Origin: Candidatus Uhrbacteria bacterium
GTDB lineage: Bacteria > Patescibacteriota > Patescibacteriia > UBA9934 > GWF2-40-263
DNA: 54,077 nt
Assembly: GCA_018700535.1 (NCBI GenBank)
Contig: JABITQ010000072.1
Location: forward strand, 1-54,077
Direction: 5' to 3'
Shown here in pieces: positions 4,346 to 32,803 of this stretch (positions within the stretch are counted from its first letter, which is position 1; each line of letters begins with the position of its first letter). The notes beneath the pieces are model-generated. The model did no database searches and was not told where the DNA came from. It worked only from the letters and a program-made list of their open reading frames with translations. Position numbers and translations under genes: made by a program.

Positions 4346-6724
4346 ATGAATATTCTTGCATCGTACAATTGGATTAAGGAGTATCTTGATACAGATTTAT
4401 CTGCGGAGGTTTTTGCTGCAAAGACTACAGCAATTGGAAACTCGGTTGAGATGATCGAGAATGTTGCTGATCGATTTGAGAACATGGTTGTTGGGGATGT
4501 TGTAAAGCTTGAGGTTCATCCAAATGCAGACAAATTAAAGATCGCTCTTACAGACATTGGTGGAAAGAAAGTTAGAGTTGTTTGTGGGGGTGAGAACTTA
4601 GAGGAAGGCCAGAAGGTTGTTGTTGGGCTACCGGGGGCCAAGGTGCGCTGGCATGGTGAGGGAGATTTGATCGAGCTGAAAGAATCAGAGATCCGTGGAG
4701 AAAAAAGCCATGGAATGATTTGTGCGGCTAGTGAAATTGGTTTTGAAAAATTACCGCAGGAAGAAACAGATATCTGGGATATTTCTGCACTAACAGATGC
4801 AAAAGCGGGGACACCAATCGCAAAGGCGCTTGGACTCGATGATATCCTTTTTGATATTGAAGCAACGACGAATCGTCCAGACTGCAAATCGATTGTTGGT
4901 CAGGCGCGAGAGGGTGTTGCTGTTACCGGAGCAAAGTTTGAGGCCGAGCCACCACGTCCAGCTTTTGGAAAAGGGAATGGTGGGTTTACGGTTGATGTAA
5001 AAGATAAAGCGCTTTGTCCGCGTTATACCGCTGTGGTGATTGACGGCGTGACCGTTGGACCATCTCCGTGGTGGTTGCAGAAACGATTGCTACTTTCTGG
5101 CCATCGTCCAATCAACAACATTGTTGATGTGACTAATTACGTATTGCATGAGTTTGGACAGCCACTTCATACATTTGATGCAGATAAGCTTGCAGGCGAG
5201 AAGATTGTTGTTCGCAAAGCAAAGAAAGGGGAGAAGATGGTTGCGCTTGATGGCGAGGAGTACGAGCTAACTCCAGATATGCTGGTGGTTGCGGATTCTA
5301 AAAAGCCTGTTGCGGTTGCGGGTGTTATGGGTGGACTGCCGACCGGGACCACTGAAGAGACCACGAAGGTGGTGATTGAGTGCGCAGCATTCGACTCTGT
5401 TTCTGTGCGACGAACATCGCGTGCATTGAATCTGTACTCCGACTCACAATTGTTATTTGAAAAAGGATTGTCTACAGAAGCTCTTGATGCAGCAATGGCT
5501 CGCGCAATCGAGCTTATCATCGAGGTTGCTGGCGGTGTTGTTGTTTCAGATCTTATTGATGAGCGTGCGGGTAAGTACAAGACACTAAGCTTTCCGTTTG
5601 ATCCTGAGGTTGTTAATCAGCTTATTGGAATTGAAATTGAGACCAAGGAACAAACAACGATTCTTGAAAGTCTTGGTTTTGAAATGAAGGGCAAGGAAGT
5701 TGTTGTGCCTTACTGGCGTGACAATGACATCGAAGCGTCTGTTGATCTTACAGAGGAGATTGCGCGCGTGTATGGATACGAGAATCTTCCGTCAATTTTA
5801 CCTGAGGGTGCGCTTGCGAATATGAGCGAGAACGTATCGCTTGTGTGGCAAAGACGTGTGAAGGATCTGCTTGCTGGTGCTGGACTGGTTGAGGTTTACA
5901 GTTATGCGTTTATTTCAGTGCAGCAACTTGAGCGTTATTCTTTACCTACCAAAGATGCGGTGAAGCTTCGGAATCCACTTAGCAAAGACCACGAGTACAT
6001 GCGTCCATCGCTTGTTCCGAGCATGCTTACAGTGATTGAAGAGAACCAAGCGCGGGATGGTGCTGGAGACTTGTTTGAGTTCGCACCGGTTTATCATGCA
6101 AAAAAAGGAGACATCCCTGACCAGCCTTACGGTTTGTTGCTTGCAAGTTATGGGCAGGATGGAGCTGCTGGGTTTGTGCGTGCAAAGGGAATGTTGGAGC
6201 GATTGTTTGATCAGGTTGGTATTAACAATTGGGATCTTGCTCGTGATGCCGATGAAACACTTTGGCATGCTGGGCGATCAGCATCTGTGATTGTTGATGG
6301 TAAGTCAGTGGGAGTTATTGGTCAGGTTCGCAATTCAGTTGCGAAAGCATTCGGACTAGATGTAAGTGTTGTGTTGGTTGATTTAGATATCGAGTCACTC
6401 ATTCCGCAATTCACACAGAACAAATCGTACACTGAGATCCCACAGTTCCAAGAGGTAAAACGAGACCTCGCATTTGTCGTGCCTGAACGAACTGAGTTTG
6501 CTGCGGTTCGTGAAGCAGCACTTGCTGTTAGTGAGCTTGAGACCACACTCGACTTGTTCGACGTCTATCGCGGAAAGGGAGTTGATGACGACAAAAAGTC
6601 TCTCGCAATCCACATGACGTTTCGATCTGACGAACGAACACTTGGTGCAGCAGAAGTCGACGAAGAACTTTCAAAGATTCGCGGCGTGCTCGTAAAGAAG
6701 TTTGGTGCTATAATGAGATCATAA
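4346..6724 (+). CDS. pheT: phenylalanyl-tRNA synthetase beta subunit
   Basis: 792 aa with tRNA-binding, B3/4, B5 and FDX-ACB domains (ending KSLAIHMTFRS). Lies immediately after pheS. Confidence 0.95.
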   Translation: MNILASYNWIKEYLDTDLSAEVFAAKTTAIGNSVEMIENVADRFENMVVGDVVKLEVHPNADKLKIALTDIGGKKVRVVCGGENLEEGQKVVVGLPGAKVRWHGEGDLIELKESEIRGEKSHGMICAASEIGFEKLPQEETDIWDISALTDAKAGTPIAKALGLDDILFDIEATTNRPDCKSIVGQAREGVAVTGAKFEAEPPRPAFGKGNGGFTVDVKDKALCPRYTAVVIDGVTVGPSPWWLQKRLLLSGHRPINNIVDVTNYVLHEFGQPLHTFDADKLAGEKIVVRKAKKGEKMVALDGEEYELTPDMLVVADSKKPVAVAGVMGGLPTGTTEETTKVVIECAAFDSVSVRRTSRALNLYSDSQLLFEKGLSTEALDAAMARAIELIIEVAGGVVVSDLIDERAGKYKTLSFPFDPEVVNQLIGIEIETKEQTTILESLGFEMKGKEVVVPYWRDNDIEASVDLTEEIARVYGYENLPSILPEGALANMSENVSLVWQRRVKDLLAGAGLVEVYSYAFISVQQLERYSLPTKDAVKLRNPLSKDHEYMRPSLVPSMLTVIEENQARDGAGDLFEFAPVYHAKKGDIPDQPYGLLLASYGQDGAAGFVRAKGMLERLFDQVGINNWDLARDADETLWHAGRSASVIVDGKSVGVIGQVRNSVAKAFGLDVSVVLVDLDIESLIPQFTQNKSYTEIPQFQEVKRDLAFVVPERTEFAAVREAALAVSELETTLDLFDVYRGKGVDDDKKSLAIHMTFRSDERTLGAAEVDEELSKIRGVLVKKFGAIMRS

Positions 6725-6740: not shown

Positions 6741-7058
6741 ATGTTTTCACCATTAGATATTTTATACATCGTTCTTGCGTTTAGTATTTTGTGGCTTACC
6801 GCCGCAATCTTCTGGCTGGTGTGGCAAGTGGCGATGGTGATAAAAAATTTGAACGACGCCATTCAACTTGCGCAGGAGACGATGGGGAAGATTGAAGAAG
6901 CGTTAACTGGGATGCGCAAAAAGTTTGAGCATAGTAGCTCGGCGCTTGGGGCAGTGTTGCATACTGCGACGACAGCTGCGGACTTCATCATGGAGAAGAA
7001 AGCTAAGGCGAAAGCTAAGAAGACGGTGAAGGCGAAGGTAAAAACTAAGAAGAAATAA
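6741..7058 (+). CDS. small membrane-anchored helical protein with Lys-rich tail (DUF948-like architecture)
   Basis: N-terminal TM helix (ILYIVLAFSILWLTAAIFWLVW), a helical region, and a KKAKAKAKKTVKAKVKTKKK tail. AGGAGG lies only 2 nt from the ATG. Confidence 0.6.
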   Translation: MFSPLDILYIVLAFSILWLTAAIFWLVWQVAMVIKNLNDAIQLAQETMGKIEEALTGMRKKFEHSSSALGAVLHTATTAADFIMEKKAKAKAKKTVKAKVKTKKK

Positions 7059-7084
7059 ATAGGGCATTTGCCCTATTTTTGTTT
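7059..7084 (+). terminator. intrinsic terminator
   Basis: ATAGGGC-ATTT-GCCCTAT hairpin followed by TTTTTGTTT, directly after the stop at 7056-7058. Confidence 0.75.
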
Positions 7085-7119
7085 GATGTAGAGTAAATTG
7101 ATCTTACGACTGAGAAACC

Positions 7120-7165
7120 ATCGAAACAGAAAATCCACCCTCGAGCTATGCTCAAGGGTGGATTC
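7120..7165 (-). terminator. intrinsic terminator of the 7181-8380 gene
   Basis: Minus-strand hairpin AATCCACCCT..AGGGTGGATT followed by TTTCTGTTTCG. Confidence 0.6.
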
Positions 7166-7180
7166 GTTTCGTTGCGAGCT

Positions 7181-8380
7181 TTACGGCTGCGGCATGTTCG
7201 TCGGAGCGTTCATGCTGTGCCAGTGGTGCCCACCGTTGGTGGTGGTCCCCACAATTGCGTAGTTGTGCTGCACGTCAGTCGACACCATCCCCCAAGGCAT
7301 GGCCAAGTCGGAGTTGCTGACAGACAAGCGCTCACTCATCGCCAATGGGCTGTTGTCGCCCGTGATATACGACACGGACGTGACGTAGTTCTCGAATGTG
7401 AGCATTCCGTAGATCGAATTGCCAGGGTCCATAGGTCCATCGTCGATGGGGCCATCGTCCATCGGTCCATCGGATCCCGGGTCAGCAGTGGGATCGGTCG
7501 GATCACTGTCACCGGCGTAGCCCATTGGATCCATCGGGTCGTCCCCGATCATGAAGATGTCCGCGACACCGATGTTCATGGGGTCGAAGAACGTGACGTA
7601 CCGATTACCACCGGACGATTCCCAACCGAACCCGATCGGCAGACCTGTCGAGACACTGAGTCTCTCAAACAGGTCGTACACCTGGAGATAGTCCGGGTCG
7701 AAACCTGCGCTGAGCAGATATGTTCCCACACGACCGTCGCCCGAGGCAATGATGCCGTCGTCGTTGTCGTGGTTCTTGCACGGGTCGTCTTCTTCTGGAT
7801 GGTTCCAGCCGTAATCGCAGAGATCACAGTCATCACCAGAGTCAGCAACGTCACCGTCACCGTCACCCCAACCCCAGTCCCAGGAGCCTCCACCCATCTC
7901 TCCGCCGGGCTCCGTACCGAAGCCACCCATCTGACCGCCGTAGATACCAGCGGTGGTGGGCAAGGGGTATGGCGTGCCATACAGCAGATTGTCCATCGTC
8001 CCGGTCGGGAGGATGATGGTCGGGGGCATGATCATGGTGGGAAGCTGGGGCCTCAGAGCGTACTGGATCAACGCCTTGTGCAGCTCAAACAGTCGTGCCA
8101 CACCCAATTTCCACTCAGACACCGCTGTTTTCCAGATGGTGCCGTTGTAGGCAGATTGGGAGATTGTGACACCCAGCTCTTTGACAGTGATTACCAAGAC
8201 ATCGAACTCAGCTTGCGCTGCGGCAGCTTGTGCAGCCGTCGTGATGACGAGTCCACCATCGGCTGTGGCATGTGCCGGCGAAGAGCCGAAGTTGGCCACA
8301 GAATGCAGCACCTTGGCTGGATTGTGGAGCGTGGCACCCAACAGAAGGGCAGAGAGTGAGATAAAGAGTTTACTTCGCAT
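7181..8380 (-). CDS. secreted, highly acidic Asp/Gly/Pro-rich protein (399 aa), function unknown
   Basis: Signal-peptide-like N-terminus (MRSKLFISLSALLLGATL). GGAG lies 9 nt upstream of the ATG, and the gene has its own terminator. The mirror + strand ORF (7148-8359) is Arg/His/Val-rich, typical of antisense frames in GC-rich DNA. Confidence 0.7.
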   Translation of the reverse strand: MRSKLFISLSALLLGATLHNPAKVLHSVANFGSSPAHATADGGLVITTAAQAAAAQAEFDVLVITVKELGVTISQSAYNGTIWKTAVSEWKLGVARLFELHKALIQYALRPQLPTMIMPPTIILPTGTMDNLLYGTPYPLPTTAGIYGGQMGGFGTEPGGEMGGGSWDWGWGDGDGDVADSGDDCDLCDYGWNHPEEDDPCKNHDNDDGIIASGDGRVGTYLLSAGFDPDYLQVYDLFERLSVSTGLPIGFGWESSGGNRYVTFFDPMNIGVADIFMIGDDPMDPMGYAGDSDPTDPTADPGSDGPMDDGPIDDGPMDPGNSIYGMLTFENYVTSVSYITGDNSPLAMSERLSVSNSDLAMPWGMVSTDVQHNYAIVGTTTNGGHHWHSMNAPTNMPQP

Positions 8381-8583
8381 TGGTCGGATCTCCGTGAGAA
8401 TATGTGTGCATCAGACCGCCTGATACACACGGTTTTGCTGAGGTTGTCCCAGCGGTAAAATCTATGAATATTTCTCATAGATTCAACCTCTAAAACAACG
8501 CAGGCGCGGACAATGTCATATAGAGCGCTTTTTGTCAATAGCCATAGGGTTAACCGATCTCCAAATAGCCTTATATTGCTGGT

Positions 8584-8630
8584 AAAAACAAGACGCCACC
8601 CGGGAGTTACCAGGTGGCGCTTTTTCGTTT
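8584..8630. terminator. bidirectional intrinsic terminator
   Basis: GACGCCACCCGGG..CCAGGTGGCGC hairpin with T-runs on both strands, just after the stop of the 8636-9064 gene. Confidence 0.7.
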
Positions 8631-8635
8631 TCGTT

Positions 8636-9064
8636 TCAGACTCGGTCTATGGAGGCAACGCCTTCGATTTGCCCGATTCGCTGAAAGAGTTCTCGGATAA
8701 GAGTTCGCTGTGTCTCTTCCGGAACATCGTCATCAAAGCTGATGGCGAGCGTTGCAGAAGGAGCGAGAATGTTCATCGACTCGATTTTGCCACAGAAGCC
8801 AGTGATATCCCTGACGAAATCTTCGTAGGAAATGTCGGCACCTTCGAGAATGTTCATCATCTCGGTCTGTTCCCAGATGCGTTCATTGAGCAATCGGTTC
8901 AGGCGTCGAATTTCAGTAGCTGGTCCACTGTACGTTTGTTCCAATGGCCGGAGCTTGAAACGACTGCCTCGCAGCAACAACTTCAGGGCTTCGAATTCTT
9001 CGATGACTGGCCTGGTGGAAAAGGTGATCTGGAGTACTAGTAGATCAAGTTTGCGGGGTGACAT
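8636..9064 (-). CDS. hypothetical protein (142 aa)
   Basis: ORF with AGGAG 5 nt upstream of the ATG at 9064. The overlapping + ORF 8513-9040 runs through the terminator hairpin and was rejected. Confidence 0.65.
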   Translation of the reverse strand: MSPRKLDLLVLQITFSTRPVIEEFEALKLLLRGSRFKLRPLEQTYSGPATEIRRLNRLLNERIWEQTEMMNILEGADISYEDFVRDITGFCGKIESMNILAPSATLAISFDDDVPEETQRTLIRELFQRIGQIEGVASIDRV

Positions 9065-9098
9065 GCATTCTCCTATGGGGGGTGTTGATTGTTTGCTC

Positions 9099-9782
9099 TT
9101 AGAGTCTTTGGTTGTCCATCTCAGAGAGGATGACCTTCAGCATTTTGGCATCTTCACTTCTGTGTCGTGAGCGCTCCATCTTGCTTTGAGCGGCTTGCAA
9201 TCCAACCCTGAGCGCAATGACAGCATCGCGATTTTTTTCCATTCTGAGCTGAGGTGTCATGTAGCGAACCCATCCTCGGACCCCTCCGCCTGCGCCGCGG
9301 ATGTGATCGAGGAGAGAGAAGAACATGAACGCACCTTCATAGACCTGGCTCGGTGCTTCACTTACCATCAGGTTCATCTGAAGGCTGGCGGATAGCGCGT
9401 GGTCCAGCGGCATCATCTCACGTTCCGGAAAGTTCCCAGAGTACTTGAAGATCGCGTTGATGACCGTTGTGCTCGGATCAAGATTGAGCATGGCTCGCCC
9501 AACTCTTGCCGTCTCGGACAAGAACCCGTTGGGAAGACCGGCCGCTTCTTCTTCGTCAGCCACCTCTCGAATGGCCTTCATACAGGCCGTGAGTTCGTCG
9601 AGATCTGTCACCCTCAGGTTGCTGAAGGTGGGCAGAGAGAGTCCTAATGTAATGAAAAGGGTTCGGACGTCTTCGTGGGTGGTAGGAAAACCTTTGTTGA
9701 AACGACGCAAGACATGCTCCGGAAAGTTGCTAGGTCGCGGGTTGCGACAGGTGTTTCTACCATCAGGCAGGGTATTTGTCAA
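9099..9782 (-). CDS. hypothetical protein (start uncertain)
   Basis: Longest frame in the region. The track start at 9782 is TTG with no SD. An in-frame TTG at 9710 is preceded by GGAG at 6 nt. No family recognised. Confidence 0.55.
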   Translation of the reverse strand: MTNTLPDGRNTCRNPRPSNFPEHVLRRFNKGFPTTHEDVRTLFITLGLSLPTFSNLRVTDLDELTACMKAIREVADEEEAAGLPNGFLSETARVGRAMLNLDPSTTVINAIFKYSGNFPEREMMPLDHALSASLQMNLMVSEAPSQVYEGAFMFFSLLDHIRGAGGGVRGWVRYMTPQLRMEKNRDAVIALRVGLQAAQSKMERSRHRSEDAKMLKVILSEMDNQRL

Positions 9783-9889
9783 TGGTTTGGGGTGCCTGTC
9801 TCCCTGGTGGAAAACTAAATATTTATCCCCAAAAACCTTGATAACTTTGCCTTTGCTGGAAGGCTTATAGCGTGTAAGCTCTGCTTACT

Positions 9890-12800
9890 ATGTCCAAGTT
9901 TGTTCACCTTCATTCCCATTCCCATTACTCGCTTCTTGAGGGGCTTCCTAAGACGAAGGAGTTTTTGAAGCACGTAAAGGATTTGGGGCAAGATACTGTT
10001 GCACTTACGGACAACGGAACGCTCTATGGTGTAATCGACTTTTACCAGAAAGCCCAGAAGGAGGGTATCAAGCTTATTATCGGTTGTGACTTTTATGTTG
10101 CACGCCATGGTCGTCTTTTAAAACGTGCACGCGTCGATAACAAGCCTCATCGGCTCGTCTGTCTTGCAGAAAACCTTGAGGGGGACATGAACCTTATCAA
10201 GCTTTCCTCCGTCGGATTTTTGGAGGGGTTTTATTACAAACCTCGTATCGACAAAGAGTTGCTGCGTGAACATACAAAAGGAATCATTGCGTTGTCAGGT
10301 GGGTACTTGGGTGAGATTGACGAGTTGATCAAATTGAAAAAGATTGATGAAGCAGAGGAGGTGATTAAGGGGTATGTCGAAATGTTTGGTGAGGGGAACT
10401 TCTTTTTGGAGTTGGTAGATCGCCCTGAGATTGCAGAGCAGGAGGCGACGAATGCGCAGCTTATCGCGCTTGGAAAAAAGTTGAACGTTCCTGTTGTTGC
10501 AACCAAGAATACATTTTATCTCAAGCCGGGCGACGTGGAGGCTTGGAAGATTTTGAATTGTATTAAGGGTGGTAGAACGCTCGAGCATTTTAATCGCATC
10601 AACCAGTTTGATTACGATGCGTCGATGGTGACAGGTGAGTACATGGAGGAGCGGTTTGCTGATGTACCAGAGGCGATTGAGAACACGCGGAAGATTGCGG
10701 ACAGATGCAATGTTGAGCTTGAGCTTGGAAAGTGGAACTTTCCAAAGTTTGAAATTCCTGAGGGGCAGACCTTTCTTAAGGAGCTAACAAAGCAGGCGTT
10801 TGCGAAGTTGGAAGAGAAGAAGGGTCGTGAGCTTACAGAGGTTGAGGCAGGTCGATTAAACTACGAGCTCGATATTATTGAGCAAAAAGGATTTTGTCCG
10901 TACTTTTTGATTGTGTCCGACTTTATTAACTGGGCGCGTGAAAAAGGGATCATGACCACGACGCGTGGATCTGCGGCTGGGTCACTCGTTGGGTATTCGA
11001 TTGGAATTTCTTCAGTTGATCCTTTGTATTACGAACTTCCGTTTGAACGTTTCTTAAACCCTGAGCGTCCATCTGCACCTGACGTTGATGCTGACTTTGC
11101 TGACAACCGTCGCGATGAGGTGCTTGATTATGTGCGCGAAAAATATGGTCACGACCAAGTGGCTCAGATCTGTACCTTTGGATCCATGCTTGCCAGAGGT
11201 TCGGTTAGAGATGTTGGTCGTGCGCTTGGGTTTGAGTACGGCATGATCGACGAGATTGCCAAGGTGATCCCGATGGGGTCGCAGGGGTTTGCGATGACGC
11301 TCGACCGCGCGCTTGAGGAGTCACCGGATTTGAAGAAAAAATACAACGTCGACGCAAACGTTCGTCGTGTTGTCGACCTTGCGCGCCAGCTAGAGGGGTG
11401 CGCACGTCACGTCTCTATTCATGCGGCTGGAACAGTTATTTCTCCAACGGCACTGACAGACTTTACGCCACTGCAAATTGATACACGTGAAGGAAAGATT
11501 ATCTCGCAGTACGAGATGAAGTCGGTTGAGTCTGCAGGACTCGTCAAGATGGACTTTCTTGGTATCCGCAACCTGTCAATTTTGGGAGACGCGGTTCATT
11601 TAGTAAAGAAAACAAAAGGGGATGTTATTGATGTTGAGGAAATCCCGACAGATGACAAAAAGACATTTGAGCTTTTGGCTGCCGGGAACACGATGGGGGT
11701 CTTTCAGCTTTCAGGTGATGGGATGACGAAGTACTTGATGGACCTGAAGCCGGTGCGTATTGAGGACATCATGGCGATGGTTGCCTTGTATCGCCCTGGG
11801 CCGATGGAGGTGATCCCGCAATTTATTGAGCGTCGATTTGATCCAAAGAAGGTTCGGTTCCTCGACCCTAGAATGAAAGAGTTTTTGCAGAAGTCTTATG
11901 GACTTTTGGTTTATCAGGATGACGTGATGCTTACCGCGATCCATATGGCGGGGTACTCGTGGCTTGAGGCGGACAAGTTGCGTAAAGCCATGGGAAAGAA
12001 AATTCCTGAGGAGATGGCGAAGCAGAAGATTAAGTTGCTCGATGGGTTTGTTGAACATGGTGTAAAAAAGTCGCTTGCGCAAAAGTTGTGGAAGCAGATT
12101 GAGCCGTTTGCGGCGTATGGGTTTAACAAAGCTCATGCGGCGAGTTATGGAATGGTTGCGTACCAGACGGCGTTCATGAAGGCGAACTATCCAGCTGAGT
12201 ACATGACCGCGCTGATGACCGCTGAGAGCGGAGACCTTGAGAAGATTGCGGAGGCTGTGTCTGAGTGTGCGCGCATGGGGATTGAAGTGCTGCCACCAGA
12301 TATTAACGAGTCGCTAAAAGACTTTACTTACCTTAACGACAACCAAATTCGTTTTGGTCTTTTGGTGATCAAAAACTTGGGAGGGGAGGTGATTGAGACG
12401 ATTATTGCTGAGCGCGAAAAGAATGGTGAATTTAAAGACCTCGGTGATTTTGCTGGACGTGTGTCGCACAGAGCGTTCAATAAGAAATCTCTTGAAGCAC
12501 TAACAAAGGTGGGTGCGCTTGAGCGTTTTGGTGAGCGTAAAAAACTGTTGACCAGCATGGATCGTGTATTGATGCACAACAAAAACATGCAGCGCGAGAA
12601 GGCGACGAATCAGCAATCTTTGTTTGCTGCCGCACCGCAAGTGATGGATCAAGACATTGCGCTTCGTGATTGCGAGCCAGCGACGACGCGTGAGCTGTTG
12701 ATGTGGGAGAAAGAGCTGTTGGGGTTGTTTGTGTCTGCTCATCCTTATGATGAAGTTGTTGAGAAACTAGGGAAGCATCTAACGGATTGCGCTGATGTGC

Positions 12801-31585: not shown

Positions 31586-32242
31586 TTATGCTTTGTAGTT
31601 TTCTTTTAGTTCATCTAGCTTTCCGTTCACCAGCAATTCTCGCTCTTCATCTTTGTCGAGCTTGAATCCTTGTGAGCCACTCTCTGAATATTTGGCAGCA
31701 GAGACTCCGTGGAGGTTTGCTTCCTCGGGGGTGAGGGTGTCGTCTAGTTTTTGGAAGATGACTTGGCAGACGCGCTCGCCGGGGTAGATGCGGAGTACTT
31801 GGTCGCCGGCTTCGTTTTTCATTGGGAAGATCAGGTTGCCTTTGTAGCCTGTGTCGATGATACCTGAGAGCGAGAGGTTGATCCCGCGGCGGTTGGTGCT
31901 GGTGCGCGGGAAGAGGATTGCCATGAGGTTCATGGCGTTGACCTCGATGCGCTCAAGACTTGTTCCGATCACAAACTCGTTTGGGAGCAGATCGAAATAC
32001 TGTCCGGGTTGGAGATGGATCTCGTCGAATTGTTCGCGGTGTACATCAATGTCATCGATTGAGACTTTGATGGCGCGCCGTCCTTTCTCGTCTACGGTCC
32101 AGTTGCGGGGGATAAGGAATTTGTAGCCGAGGCGTAGGTCGACGGCGTGGGGCTGCATTTGGAACTTGTCCACAGCAGGGGTGAAGCGTAAATCACCAGA
32201 AGTGATGGATTCTTGGATTTGTTTGCGGGTAAGTACAGACAT
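31586..32242 (-). CDS. dcd: dCTP deaminase / dUTPase-superfamily protein
   Basis: The Dcd-like N-terminus (LTRKQIQESI) and the GIIDTGYKGNLIFPMKN and GERVCQVIF motifs are present. Start is ATG 32242 (alternatives 32251 and 32272). It has a charged C-terminal extension. Confidence 0.85.
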   Translation of the reverse strand: MSVLTRKQIQESITSGDLRFTPAVDKFQMQPHAVDLRLGYKFLIPRNWTVDEKGRRAIKVSIDDIDVHREQFDEIHLQPGQYFDLLPNEFVIGTSLERIEVNAMNLMAILFPRTSTNRRGINLSLSGIIDTGYKGNLIFPMKNEAGDQVLRIYPGERVCQVIFQKLDDTLTPEEANLHGVSAAKYSESGSQGFKLDKDEERELLVNGKLDELKENYKA

Positions 32243-32287
32243 AGTGGTCATAGCCTGACACAAATTTGGCAATCAGAAAACCCCATC

Positions 32288-32803
32288 TTAGACAGATAGG
32301 GCTTGGCGTTGCAGAATGCCGAGCTGTTGCTTGAGTGCAGCAAAGTCATCGGTTTGCAGATTCTTGTGATGGCCGCGTTGCTCGTGGAGCATTCGAACCA
32401 CCAGTGCTGCTTCAGGAAGCTTGTTCAGGCGCATGGCTGTGAAGACCAGGACGAACAAGGTCTCGGTGGGGATTGAGATGGGGGCATGCATCTCGAGGAG
32501 TCGTTCCCCAACCAGATAGATGTCGTTGAGTAGATTCCAGGCGCCATCGAGATCTCCCACCACCTGCATTGCCCAGCCGCCATGGCCATACTGGTTCATC
32601 TCGTTTGCGCCATGTAGAAACGTCGGCTCATCTAAGAGGATATGAACAGCGAGCCCAAGGTCGTCATCTGAGACTTCTGAGATCTCTGAAGATCTTCCGC
32701 GCCTTCTCATTACTGAGGCGAGAGCTGTGTTGCGGACGCGGTATTTGAGTATGGCTGTTTTGATTACCCATCTTGTTGGTGGGTGTGTGGCAAGGTTGAT
32801 CAT
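32288..32803 (-). CDS. orphan hypothetical protein (171 aa)
   Basis: AGGAGG lies 5 nt upstream of the ATG at 32803, with its own TTGACA promoter. GC looks higher than in the neighbours. No family recognised. Confidence 0.65.
   Translation of the reverse strand: MINLATHPPTRWVIKTAILKYRVRNTALASVMRRRGRSSEISEVSDDDLGLAVHILLDEPTFLHGANEMNQYGHGGWAMQVVGDLDGAWNLLNDIYLVGERLLEMHAPISIPTETLFVLVFTAMRLNKLPEAALVVRMLHEQRGHHKNLQTDDFAALKQQLGILQRQALSV

Follow-up and report, generated by a model that had tools for sequence, protein, structure and literature searches.

The window analysed here is a stretch of 54,077 nucleotides from a Candidatus Uhrbacteria bacterium and makes up contig C20 of its assembled genome (G000; 1.03 Mb in 96 contigs, 47.0% GC). 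Between pheT and dnaE it carries three minus-strand genes, referred to below as C203, B142 and A399. A preliminary description, made from the letters alone, had pointed to the interval 7120-9790 as a GC-rich island holding these genes. Our analyses suggest, with moderate confidence, that the island is a species-specific accessory insertion of ~2.7 kb in a slot that is variable across the order, made up of two minus-strand units that belong to a class of genes rich in C at third codon positions (C3-rich). The features of the island are as follows.

9754-9782, minus strand: probable promoter of the C203-B142 operon, TTGACA (9782-9777), 14 nt, then TGGTAGAAA, an imperfect extended -10
9099-9710, minus strand: C203, 203 amino acids, cytoplasmic-looking orphan; probable start TTG 9710 behind GGAG
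8636-9064, minus strand: B142, 142 amino acids, isoelectric point (pI) 4.9, cytoplasmic-looking orphan with an AGGAG Shine-Dalgarno sequence
8583-8620, minus strand: intrinsic terminator of C203-B142, an 11-bp GC-rich stem (8593-8620), then a T tail
8510-8538, minus strand: promoter of A399, TTGACA (8538-8533), 14 nt, then TGACATTGT (extended -10); conserved in a paralogue
8381-8503, minus strand: 5' leader of A399, ~123 nt, with predicted hairpins at 8443-8499 and 8404-8430
7181-8380, minus strand: A399, 399 amino acids, acidic, predicted to be secreted or anchored; GC content at third codon positions (GC3) 0.70
7121-7165, minus strand: intrinsic terminator of A399, a 16-bp stem (7131-7165), then a T-rich tail

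Under a codon model trained on the genome, all three minus-strand frames ranked top of the six possible (+0.125, +0.076 and +0.092, on a scale where the genes of the genome have a mean of 0.18 and a standard deviation (sd) of 0.08). The preliminary description had also reported an open reading frame (ORF) that mirrors A399 on the plus strand at 7148-8359; it is present, and it is not a coding frame. Its codon score falls below zero, its GC content at first codon positions (GC1) is aberrant, and it matches the A399 paralogue more weakly in tblastn (E of 1e-9, against 1e-22 for the minus frame), so that we rule it out as a real gene. The hairpins of both terminators (7131-7165 and 8593-8620) and the TTGACA element at 8538-8533 were found on the minus strand, as had been reported. 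Our reading departs from the earlier one at the start of C203. The open frame extends to 9782, which gives 227 amino acids, the length adopted previously, but the TTG at 9782 is the first triplet of the TTGACA that forms a -35 box. Gene callers used for public assemblies place the start at TTG 9710, six bases past GGAG, and we take the protein to have 203 residues. The probable promoter read from these letters is directed away from dnaE, which starts at 9890; it was unlisted by our consensus scan, its last -10 base being A, and was read directly from the sequence.

Comparison with relatives places the island in a slot bounded by conserved genes. In 19 of 24 relatives pheT and dnaE share a contig and keep this order, separated by a gap of between 273 bp and 16 kb. 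In the close relatives G001, G006 and G008 the gap measures 439, 394 and 494 bp, against 3165 bp here. In G001, a genome of the same genus, pheT is followed by an orthologue of a small membrane-protein gene, 93 nt, and then dnaE; the arrangement is contiguous and the slot carries no cargo, so the island is missing there. Elsewhere in the order the slot contains 0.3 to 16 kb of other genes, and this cargo is unrelated to that of the island. An all-against-all BLASTP comparison of the slot ORFs revealed no cargo gene in common, and the only proteins shared were PheT, the small protein, DnaE and one small extra gene product. A399 and C203, the two proteins searched, were unmatched in 40 relatives. 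The cargo exceeded its flanks in GC3 in five of nine cargo-bearing genomes. The left border of the insertion falls within 7079-7130 and the right one within 9783-9889. The left border is preceded by two features of the conserved flank.

6741-7058, plus strand: small membrane-protein gene, Lys-rich, after pheT, conserved
7057-7078, plus strand: terminator hairpin of the small gene, the left edge of conserved DNA

The small membrane-protein gene adjoins pheT across the whole order and is a lineage-wide core gene. Its product begins MFSPLDILYIVLAFxxLW... and has only weak DUF948-like similarity. Two relatives have a homologous gene for ~113-127 amino acids (locus L008, G013:C10, 7274-7657, and locus L013, G005:C4, 563-904; 39% identity), inserted between pheT and either the small gene or dnaE. 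The slot can take large cargo in other genomes: ~6.5 kb in G013, with a P-loop-like ORF of 431 aa among it, and ~16 kb in G002.

We looked for traces of a mobile element in and around the island. No ORF in 6741-9870 had any match in Pfam, NCBIfam or PHROGs, to an integrase or recombinase or otherwise, no Rfam family, tRNA included, was found in 7000-10000, and the borders carry no direct (att) repeats beyond chance 10-12-mers. The absence of an integrase, a tRNA and border repeats noted in the preliminary description is upheld by these searches. The same is true of its remark that the three proteins match no family it recognized, as none had a significant match in Pfam, NCBIfam, PHROGs, PADLOC or PDB sequence searches. 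The opposite-strand ORFs of the island likewise had no significant match in Pfam, NCBIfam, PHROGs or PADLOC.

The composition of the island differs from that of its surroundings. GC is 54.1% across 7120-9790, compared with 47.0% for the genome and 46.7% for the window, and reaches 58.1% in the A399 gene (7181-8380, minus strand), 50.1% in the B142 gene (8636-9064, minus strand) and 53.4% in the ORF at 9099-9782 (minus strand). In sliding windows it stands at 57-59% over 7250-8250 and 53-56% over 9000-9750, with 44-50% in the flanks on both sides (the sd of 1-kb genome windows is 3.1%). Among genome windows of 2670 bp (mean 46.95%, sd 2.48%, 99th percentile 55.2%) the island stands some 2.9 sd above the mean, which would put it in about 21st place of 1211, and the 1200-bp window from 7201 ranks 19th of 3110 genome-wide. 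The tetranucleotide distance of the island from the genome profile falls in the top 3.4% of windows (z 1.9). Windowed GC, GC3, tetranucleotide and codon-usage profiles therefore bear out the GC-rich three-gene stretch that had been noticed from the letters.

The GC excess is synonymous, lies at the third codon position and is mainly toward C-ending codons. GC3 is 0.70 in A399 (z 3.3), 0.56 in B142 (z 1.3) and 0.61 in C203 (z 2.0), against a genome mean of 0.466 (sd 0.07). GC1 and GC content at second codon positions (GC2) of the minus-strand frames are ordinary and close to the genome mean, apart from the GC2 of A399 at +1.7 sd. C occupies 0.33-0.43 of the 4-fold degenerate sites in the island, 0.15 genome-wide and 0.08 in pheT and dnaE, and GC3 at 4-fold sites is 0.54-0.63 in the island, compared with only about 0.3 in the native minus-strand genes of the contig. 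Amino-acid composition can be ruled out as the main cause, with ordinary GC1 and an A399 GC3 that exceeds its amino-acid expectation by 0.24 (z 3.4). The bias is also not one of ordinary translational selection, because GC3 is low (0.26-0.48), as is C at 4-fold sites, in the genes for ribosomal proteins, EF-Tu and EF-G.

The whole contig has a very strong strand asymmetry at 4-fold sites. Plus-strand genes carry G at 0.2-0.45 and C at 0.05-0.12 of these sites, and minus-strand genes carry C at 0.11-0.33, G at 0.09-0.17 and A at about 0.4. The contig appears to belong to a single replichore in which mutation is markedly skewed. We considered this replication-strand skew as the full cause of the bias and rejected it; it accounts for part of the excess of C over G on the minus strand and not for the total GC3.

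A genome-wide survey revealed that the island is not alone in this respect. Thirty-five genes of the genome exceed their expected GC3 by more than 0.14, with C at 0.36 of 4-fold sites, and many of them encode acidic products with lipoprotein or signal-peptide N-termini. A consensus promoter lies within 350 nt upstream of 26% of these 35 genes and of 3.6% of the other 773, so that C3-rich genes are seven times likelier than others to carry a promoter of TTGACA plus an (extended) -10 consensus. The tetranucleotide deviation of the island correlates with that of the other high-GC patches of the genome (r 0.66-0.77) and negatively with that of the ribosomal cluster (-0.42). One such patch, on contig C87 at 31-40 kb, was confirmed in both composition and promoters. 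The island falls within this genome-wide class, whose genes are C3-rich and have strong promoters and in many cases encode secreted proteins. Elsewhere in the window, the minus-strand genes 31586-32272 and 32288-32803 have a C fraction of 0.44-0.49 at 4-fold sites.

A399, the most GC-rich of the three genes, encodes an acidic protein (pI 4.1) of low-complexity composition, with 12.8% Gly, 9.8% Asp and 7.5% Pro. Its N-terminus is basic and is followed by a hydrophobic, signal-like segment and then by a conserved PAHA motif; further on lie a helical region of ~70 amino acids, a GIYGGQMGGFG motif and a Gly/Asp tract. Within the family the conserved motifs are GIYGGQxGGF, CxxC and then DDPCxxH (Cys/His), and the protein also has Asp/Pro-rich linkers. 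Our best guess from these sequence features is that A399 is a secreted or surface protein of acidic, Gly/Asp/Pro-rich type, for which the surface location is a prediction. An AlphaFold model built from an alignment of three sequences was unusable (predicted local distance difference test (pLDDT) 34).

Three relatives of A399 were found. A paralogue on contig C77 (G000:C77:15009-16127) shares 41% identity (HMMER E 2.6e-51) and likewise forms a local GC peak, with GC3 of 0.64. Identity between the two coding sequences is 52%, and at 4-fold sites they have reached saturation, with 32% identity where 25% is expected. A homologue of 403 amino acids, P0002, is 40% identical and is encoded on a metagenome contig from the Joint Genome Institute (JGI; sample 3300072015), where its gene adjoins Mur-ligase and DivIC genes in a chromosomal context like that of the candidate phyla radiation (CPR). 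A weak match to the family was found in a lipoprotein of G120, a genome of another family of the same order. Apart from this weak match the family was not found in 160 other genomes of the order or in 400 genomes of the class, and motif scans of 185,579 species genomes and of metagenomes re-found only the population studied here. The G120 gene (locus L026, G120:C4, 960-2319) encodes an LSSGC lipobox and has a similar TTGACA...ACATTCCTC promoter start and a leader of ~160 nt, which is too diverged from the A399 leader for reliable alignment.

The promoter and leader of A399 are 72% identical to those of the paralogue within an upstream alignment of ~300 columns. The promoter form (TTGACA-N13-15-TGnYA-type) recurs at 21 other sites of the genome. 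The leader folds with a minimum free energy of -49.4 kcal/mol (z -4.9), and the last of its hairpins ends ~10 nt ahead of the Shine-Dalgarno sequence, GGAG at about 8390-8393. Between A399 and the paralogue, the only two clear copies, with no third that aligns reliably, the predicted hairpins comprise 39 pairs, of which seven show compensatory changes and none is broken in either copy; slid controls gave 34-46% pairing and no compensatory changes. The two-hairpin structure predicted from these sequences is conserved with covariation. Rfam covariance models gave no match in 7000-10000 at E <= 1, and the leader thus resembles no cis-regulatory RNA family in that collection. Our best guess is that it is a candidate stabilizing or regulatory RNA element. 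A 4-bp helix between the 5' end of the leader and the Shine-Dalgarno sequence was also considered and is doubtful, since its 5' side extends into the -10 box and probably lies outside the transcript. Directly upstream of the promoter of the paralogue lies a 64-nt element (G000:C77:16310-16373) with an 86% identical copy (G000:C27:20485-20547) beside another consensus promoter; it may be a small hairpin repeat of this genome.

Among 5.8 billion proteins, C203 and B142 each had no match but themselves, and the same held for C203 among 1.8 billion cluster representatives. Two candidate relatives from an exhaustive HMMER search with the 227-aa ORF, P0005 and P0006, were rejected as highly repetitive, their multi-stretch scores being repeat artefacts. 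A low-confidence single-sequence model of B142 (pLDDT 58) suggests a split ferredoxin-like beta-alpha-beta arrangement with an insert of ~60 amino acids, and a fold search with it returned generic ferredoxin-like matches, none of them significant. For a role in toxin-antitoxin or anti-phage defence systems, no significant PADLOC, Pfam, NCBIfam or PHROG match was obtained for the pair, and sequence and fold searches of PDB were non-significant. Our best guess is that C203-B142 is a two-gene cytoplasmic unit unrelated to A399.

Public data were used to assess the integrity of the locus. Exact-protein look-ups recovered 11 public contigs, from several samples and with three assembler naming styles, that match the window at 99.1-99.9%. 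At least eight independent contigs cross one or both island junctions. Five (L017, L018, L019, L020 and L023) run from pheT or the small gene through the island to dnaE and include both junctions; L016, L021 and L022 run across the junction on the dnaE side and extend as far as the end of the small gene; L024 and L025 start within the island on the B142 side and cross the pheT-side junction into pheT. All 11 contigs carry the same island with only four single-nucleotide polymorphisms (SNPs) and no strain polymorphism at the slot, and the island is fixed in the sampled population. Relative to the window, the core neighbours have 48 synonymous and 11 nonsynonymous SNPs and the island has none and four, respectively (Fisher p 0.002, which is indicative only, as the SNPs were taken from consensus sequences of assembled contigs and lie clustered in tracts, so that the test overstates independence). 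The same island sequence is linked to at least two haplotypes of pheT. The lack of synonymous SNPs fits an ancestor of the island more recent than that of its flanks, through either recent gain or a sweep. Within pheT, 5380-6140 holds dense, mostly synonymous SNP clusters representing at least two or three haplotypes, and 1 kb away the island shows almost no variation; some of the pheT clusters lie at contig ends and may be artefacts of strain collapse.

Taken together, these observations favour an accessory insertion, and the two units would most likely have been acquired once the sister species had split off. The first unit would consist of its promoter, the two cytoplasmic orphans C203 and B142, and a terminator, and the second of its promoter, the structured leader of ~123 nt, A399, and a terminator. 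We infer that the route was recombination with DNA of a related Uhrbacteria-like lineage or of the same gene pool and not a mobile element, and horizontal transfer among such lineages is plausible. In this account the GC richness would mark membership of the C3-rich class more than a recent foreign origin. As to the reading offered in the preliminary description, horizontally acquired or otherwise compositionally distinct accessory DNA, the distinct and accessory character stands, with the island absent from G001, and a foreign high-GC import is weakened.

Several points weigh against an insertion as just outlined. G001 is distant (79% identity in DnaE and 67% in PheT), so that a gain would span a long time and leaves room for loss in several relatives. 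Its intergenic DNA does not align with that of the window, so the borders cannot be placed to the base, and no donor was identified. The A399 paralogues are saturated at synonymous sites and yet both are GC3-rich, which argues for a maintained bias or two separate imports and not for one recent event. The structure models are poor (pLDDT 34 for A399 and 58 for B142), and the dependence among SNPs described above also counts here.

An alternative that we regard as possible, although unlikely, is a native locus of ancestral origin and fast evolution, which the sister species has lost and which has become unrecognizable elsewhere through divergence, with GC3 kept high by selection or biased gene conversion. 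Many genomes of the order hold cargo at the same slot, GC3-richer than the flanks in the five of nine genomes noted above, and the paralogues have remained GC3-rich despite saturated divergence. On the other hand, the slot is empty in the nearest relatives G001, G006 and G008, the cargos have no detectable homology to one another, and the diversity of the island in the population is below that of its flanks.

An import from an unrelated donor of higher GC, such as a host or a member of another phylum, recent enough to be unameliorated, appears improbable to us. It would be consistent with the GC3 z-scores of 1.3 to 3.3, the absence of the genes from all relatives searched and the lack of synonymous polymorphism in the population. 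However, both units carry the TTGACA plus extended -10 promoter form of the genome itself, and an anciently diverged A399 paralogue with a conserved leader resides in the same genome. Other homologues are limited to P0002, in its CPR-like context, and the weak match from the same order, with none in the motif scan of 185,579 species genomes, and mobility genes are lacking. GC richness is itself weak evidence of foreign origin here, because the C3-rich bias is common to about 35 other genes of the genome. Finally, an assembly or binning artefact, in the form of a chimeric join or a contaminant between pheT and dnaE, might be suspected from the compositional jump, from the 3.2% estimated contamination of this 96-contig metagenome-assembled genome and from public contigs that end near 7011-7133, but it is extremely improbable, and the chimera proposed earlier is effectively refuted by the junctions reproduced in contigs of different samples and three assembler naming schemes.

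We return to the insertion of two C3-rich units as the preferred reading. It could be one instance of a more general process, and we propose, very tentatively, a cassette-exchange regime so far undescribed in Uhrbacteria-like CPR bacteria. Self-promoted C3-rich genes, often with structured leaders, would be moved or replaced at fixed housekeeping junctions with no recognizable recombinase, and bias and leader would be kept by selection, which might act, for example, on mRNA stability or on the coupling of surface-protein expression to export. If this proposal is true, the A399 leader would be a new cis-acting RNA motif.

We found no description of this phenomenon in the published literature. 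An empty slot in the sister species together with near-zero synonymous diversity provides one more dated case, which may help explain how CPR bacteria renew surface and accessory genes without mobile-element machinery. The two-hairpin leader common to anciently diverged paralogues adds a small candidate regulatory or stabilizing RNA. For work on these ultra-small genomes, a jump in GC is an unreliable sign of foreign DNA, marking here a native-looking class of genes, and annotation and binning pipelines could mistake such C3-rich stretches for contamination.

The locus can be compared with three known systems. It resembles classical integrase-mediated islands in its atypical GC and its absence from close relatives. 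It differs from them, and from integrative elements and prophage remnants, in having no integrase or recombinase, tRNA, direct repeats or phage or plasmid matches. The 5' untranslated region (UTR) of E. coli ompA is a stem-loop leader of the mRNA for an abundant envelope protein. The A399 leader has no sequence relationship to it, and the likeness would be one of analogy: a predicted length of ~120-130 nt, stable hairpins ahead of a gene for a secreted protein, and a last hairpin that ends ~10 nt before the Shine-Dalgarno sequence. Flexible genomic islands and islets, of additive or replacement type, occupy fixed hypervariable slots in marine and halophilic prokaryotes. Unlike these, the island here is very small (three genes), fixed and near-invariant in the sampled population, each of its units has a host consensus promoter, and its C3-rich bias is common to a genome-wide class. 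It shares with them a fixed slot between core genes, non-homologous cargo in relatives, the lack of an integrase and att sites, an atypical composition and at least one cargo gene for a predicted secreted or surface protein (A399), and in these respects the island is a flexible genomic islet.

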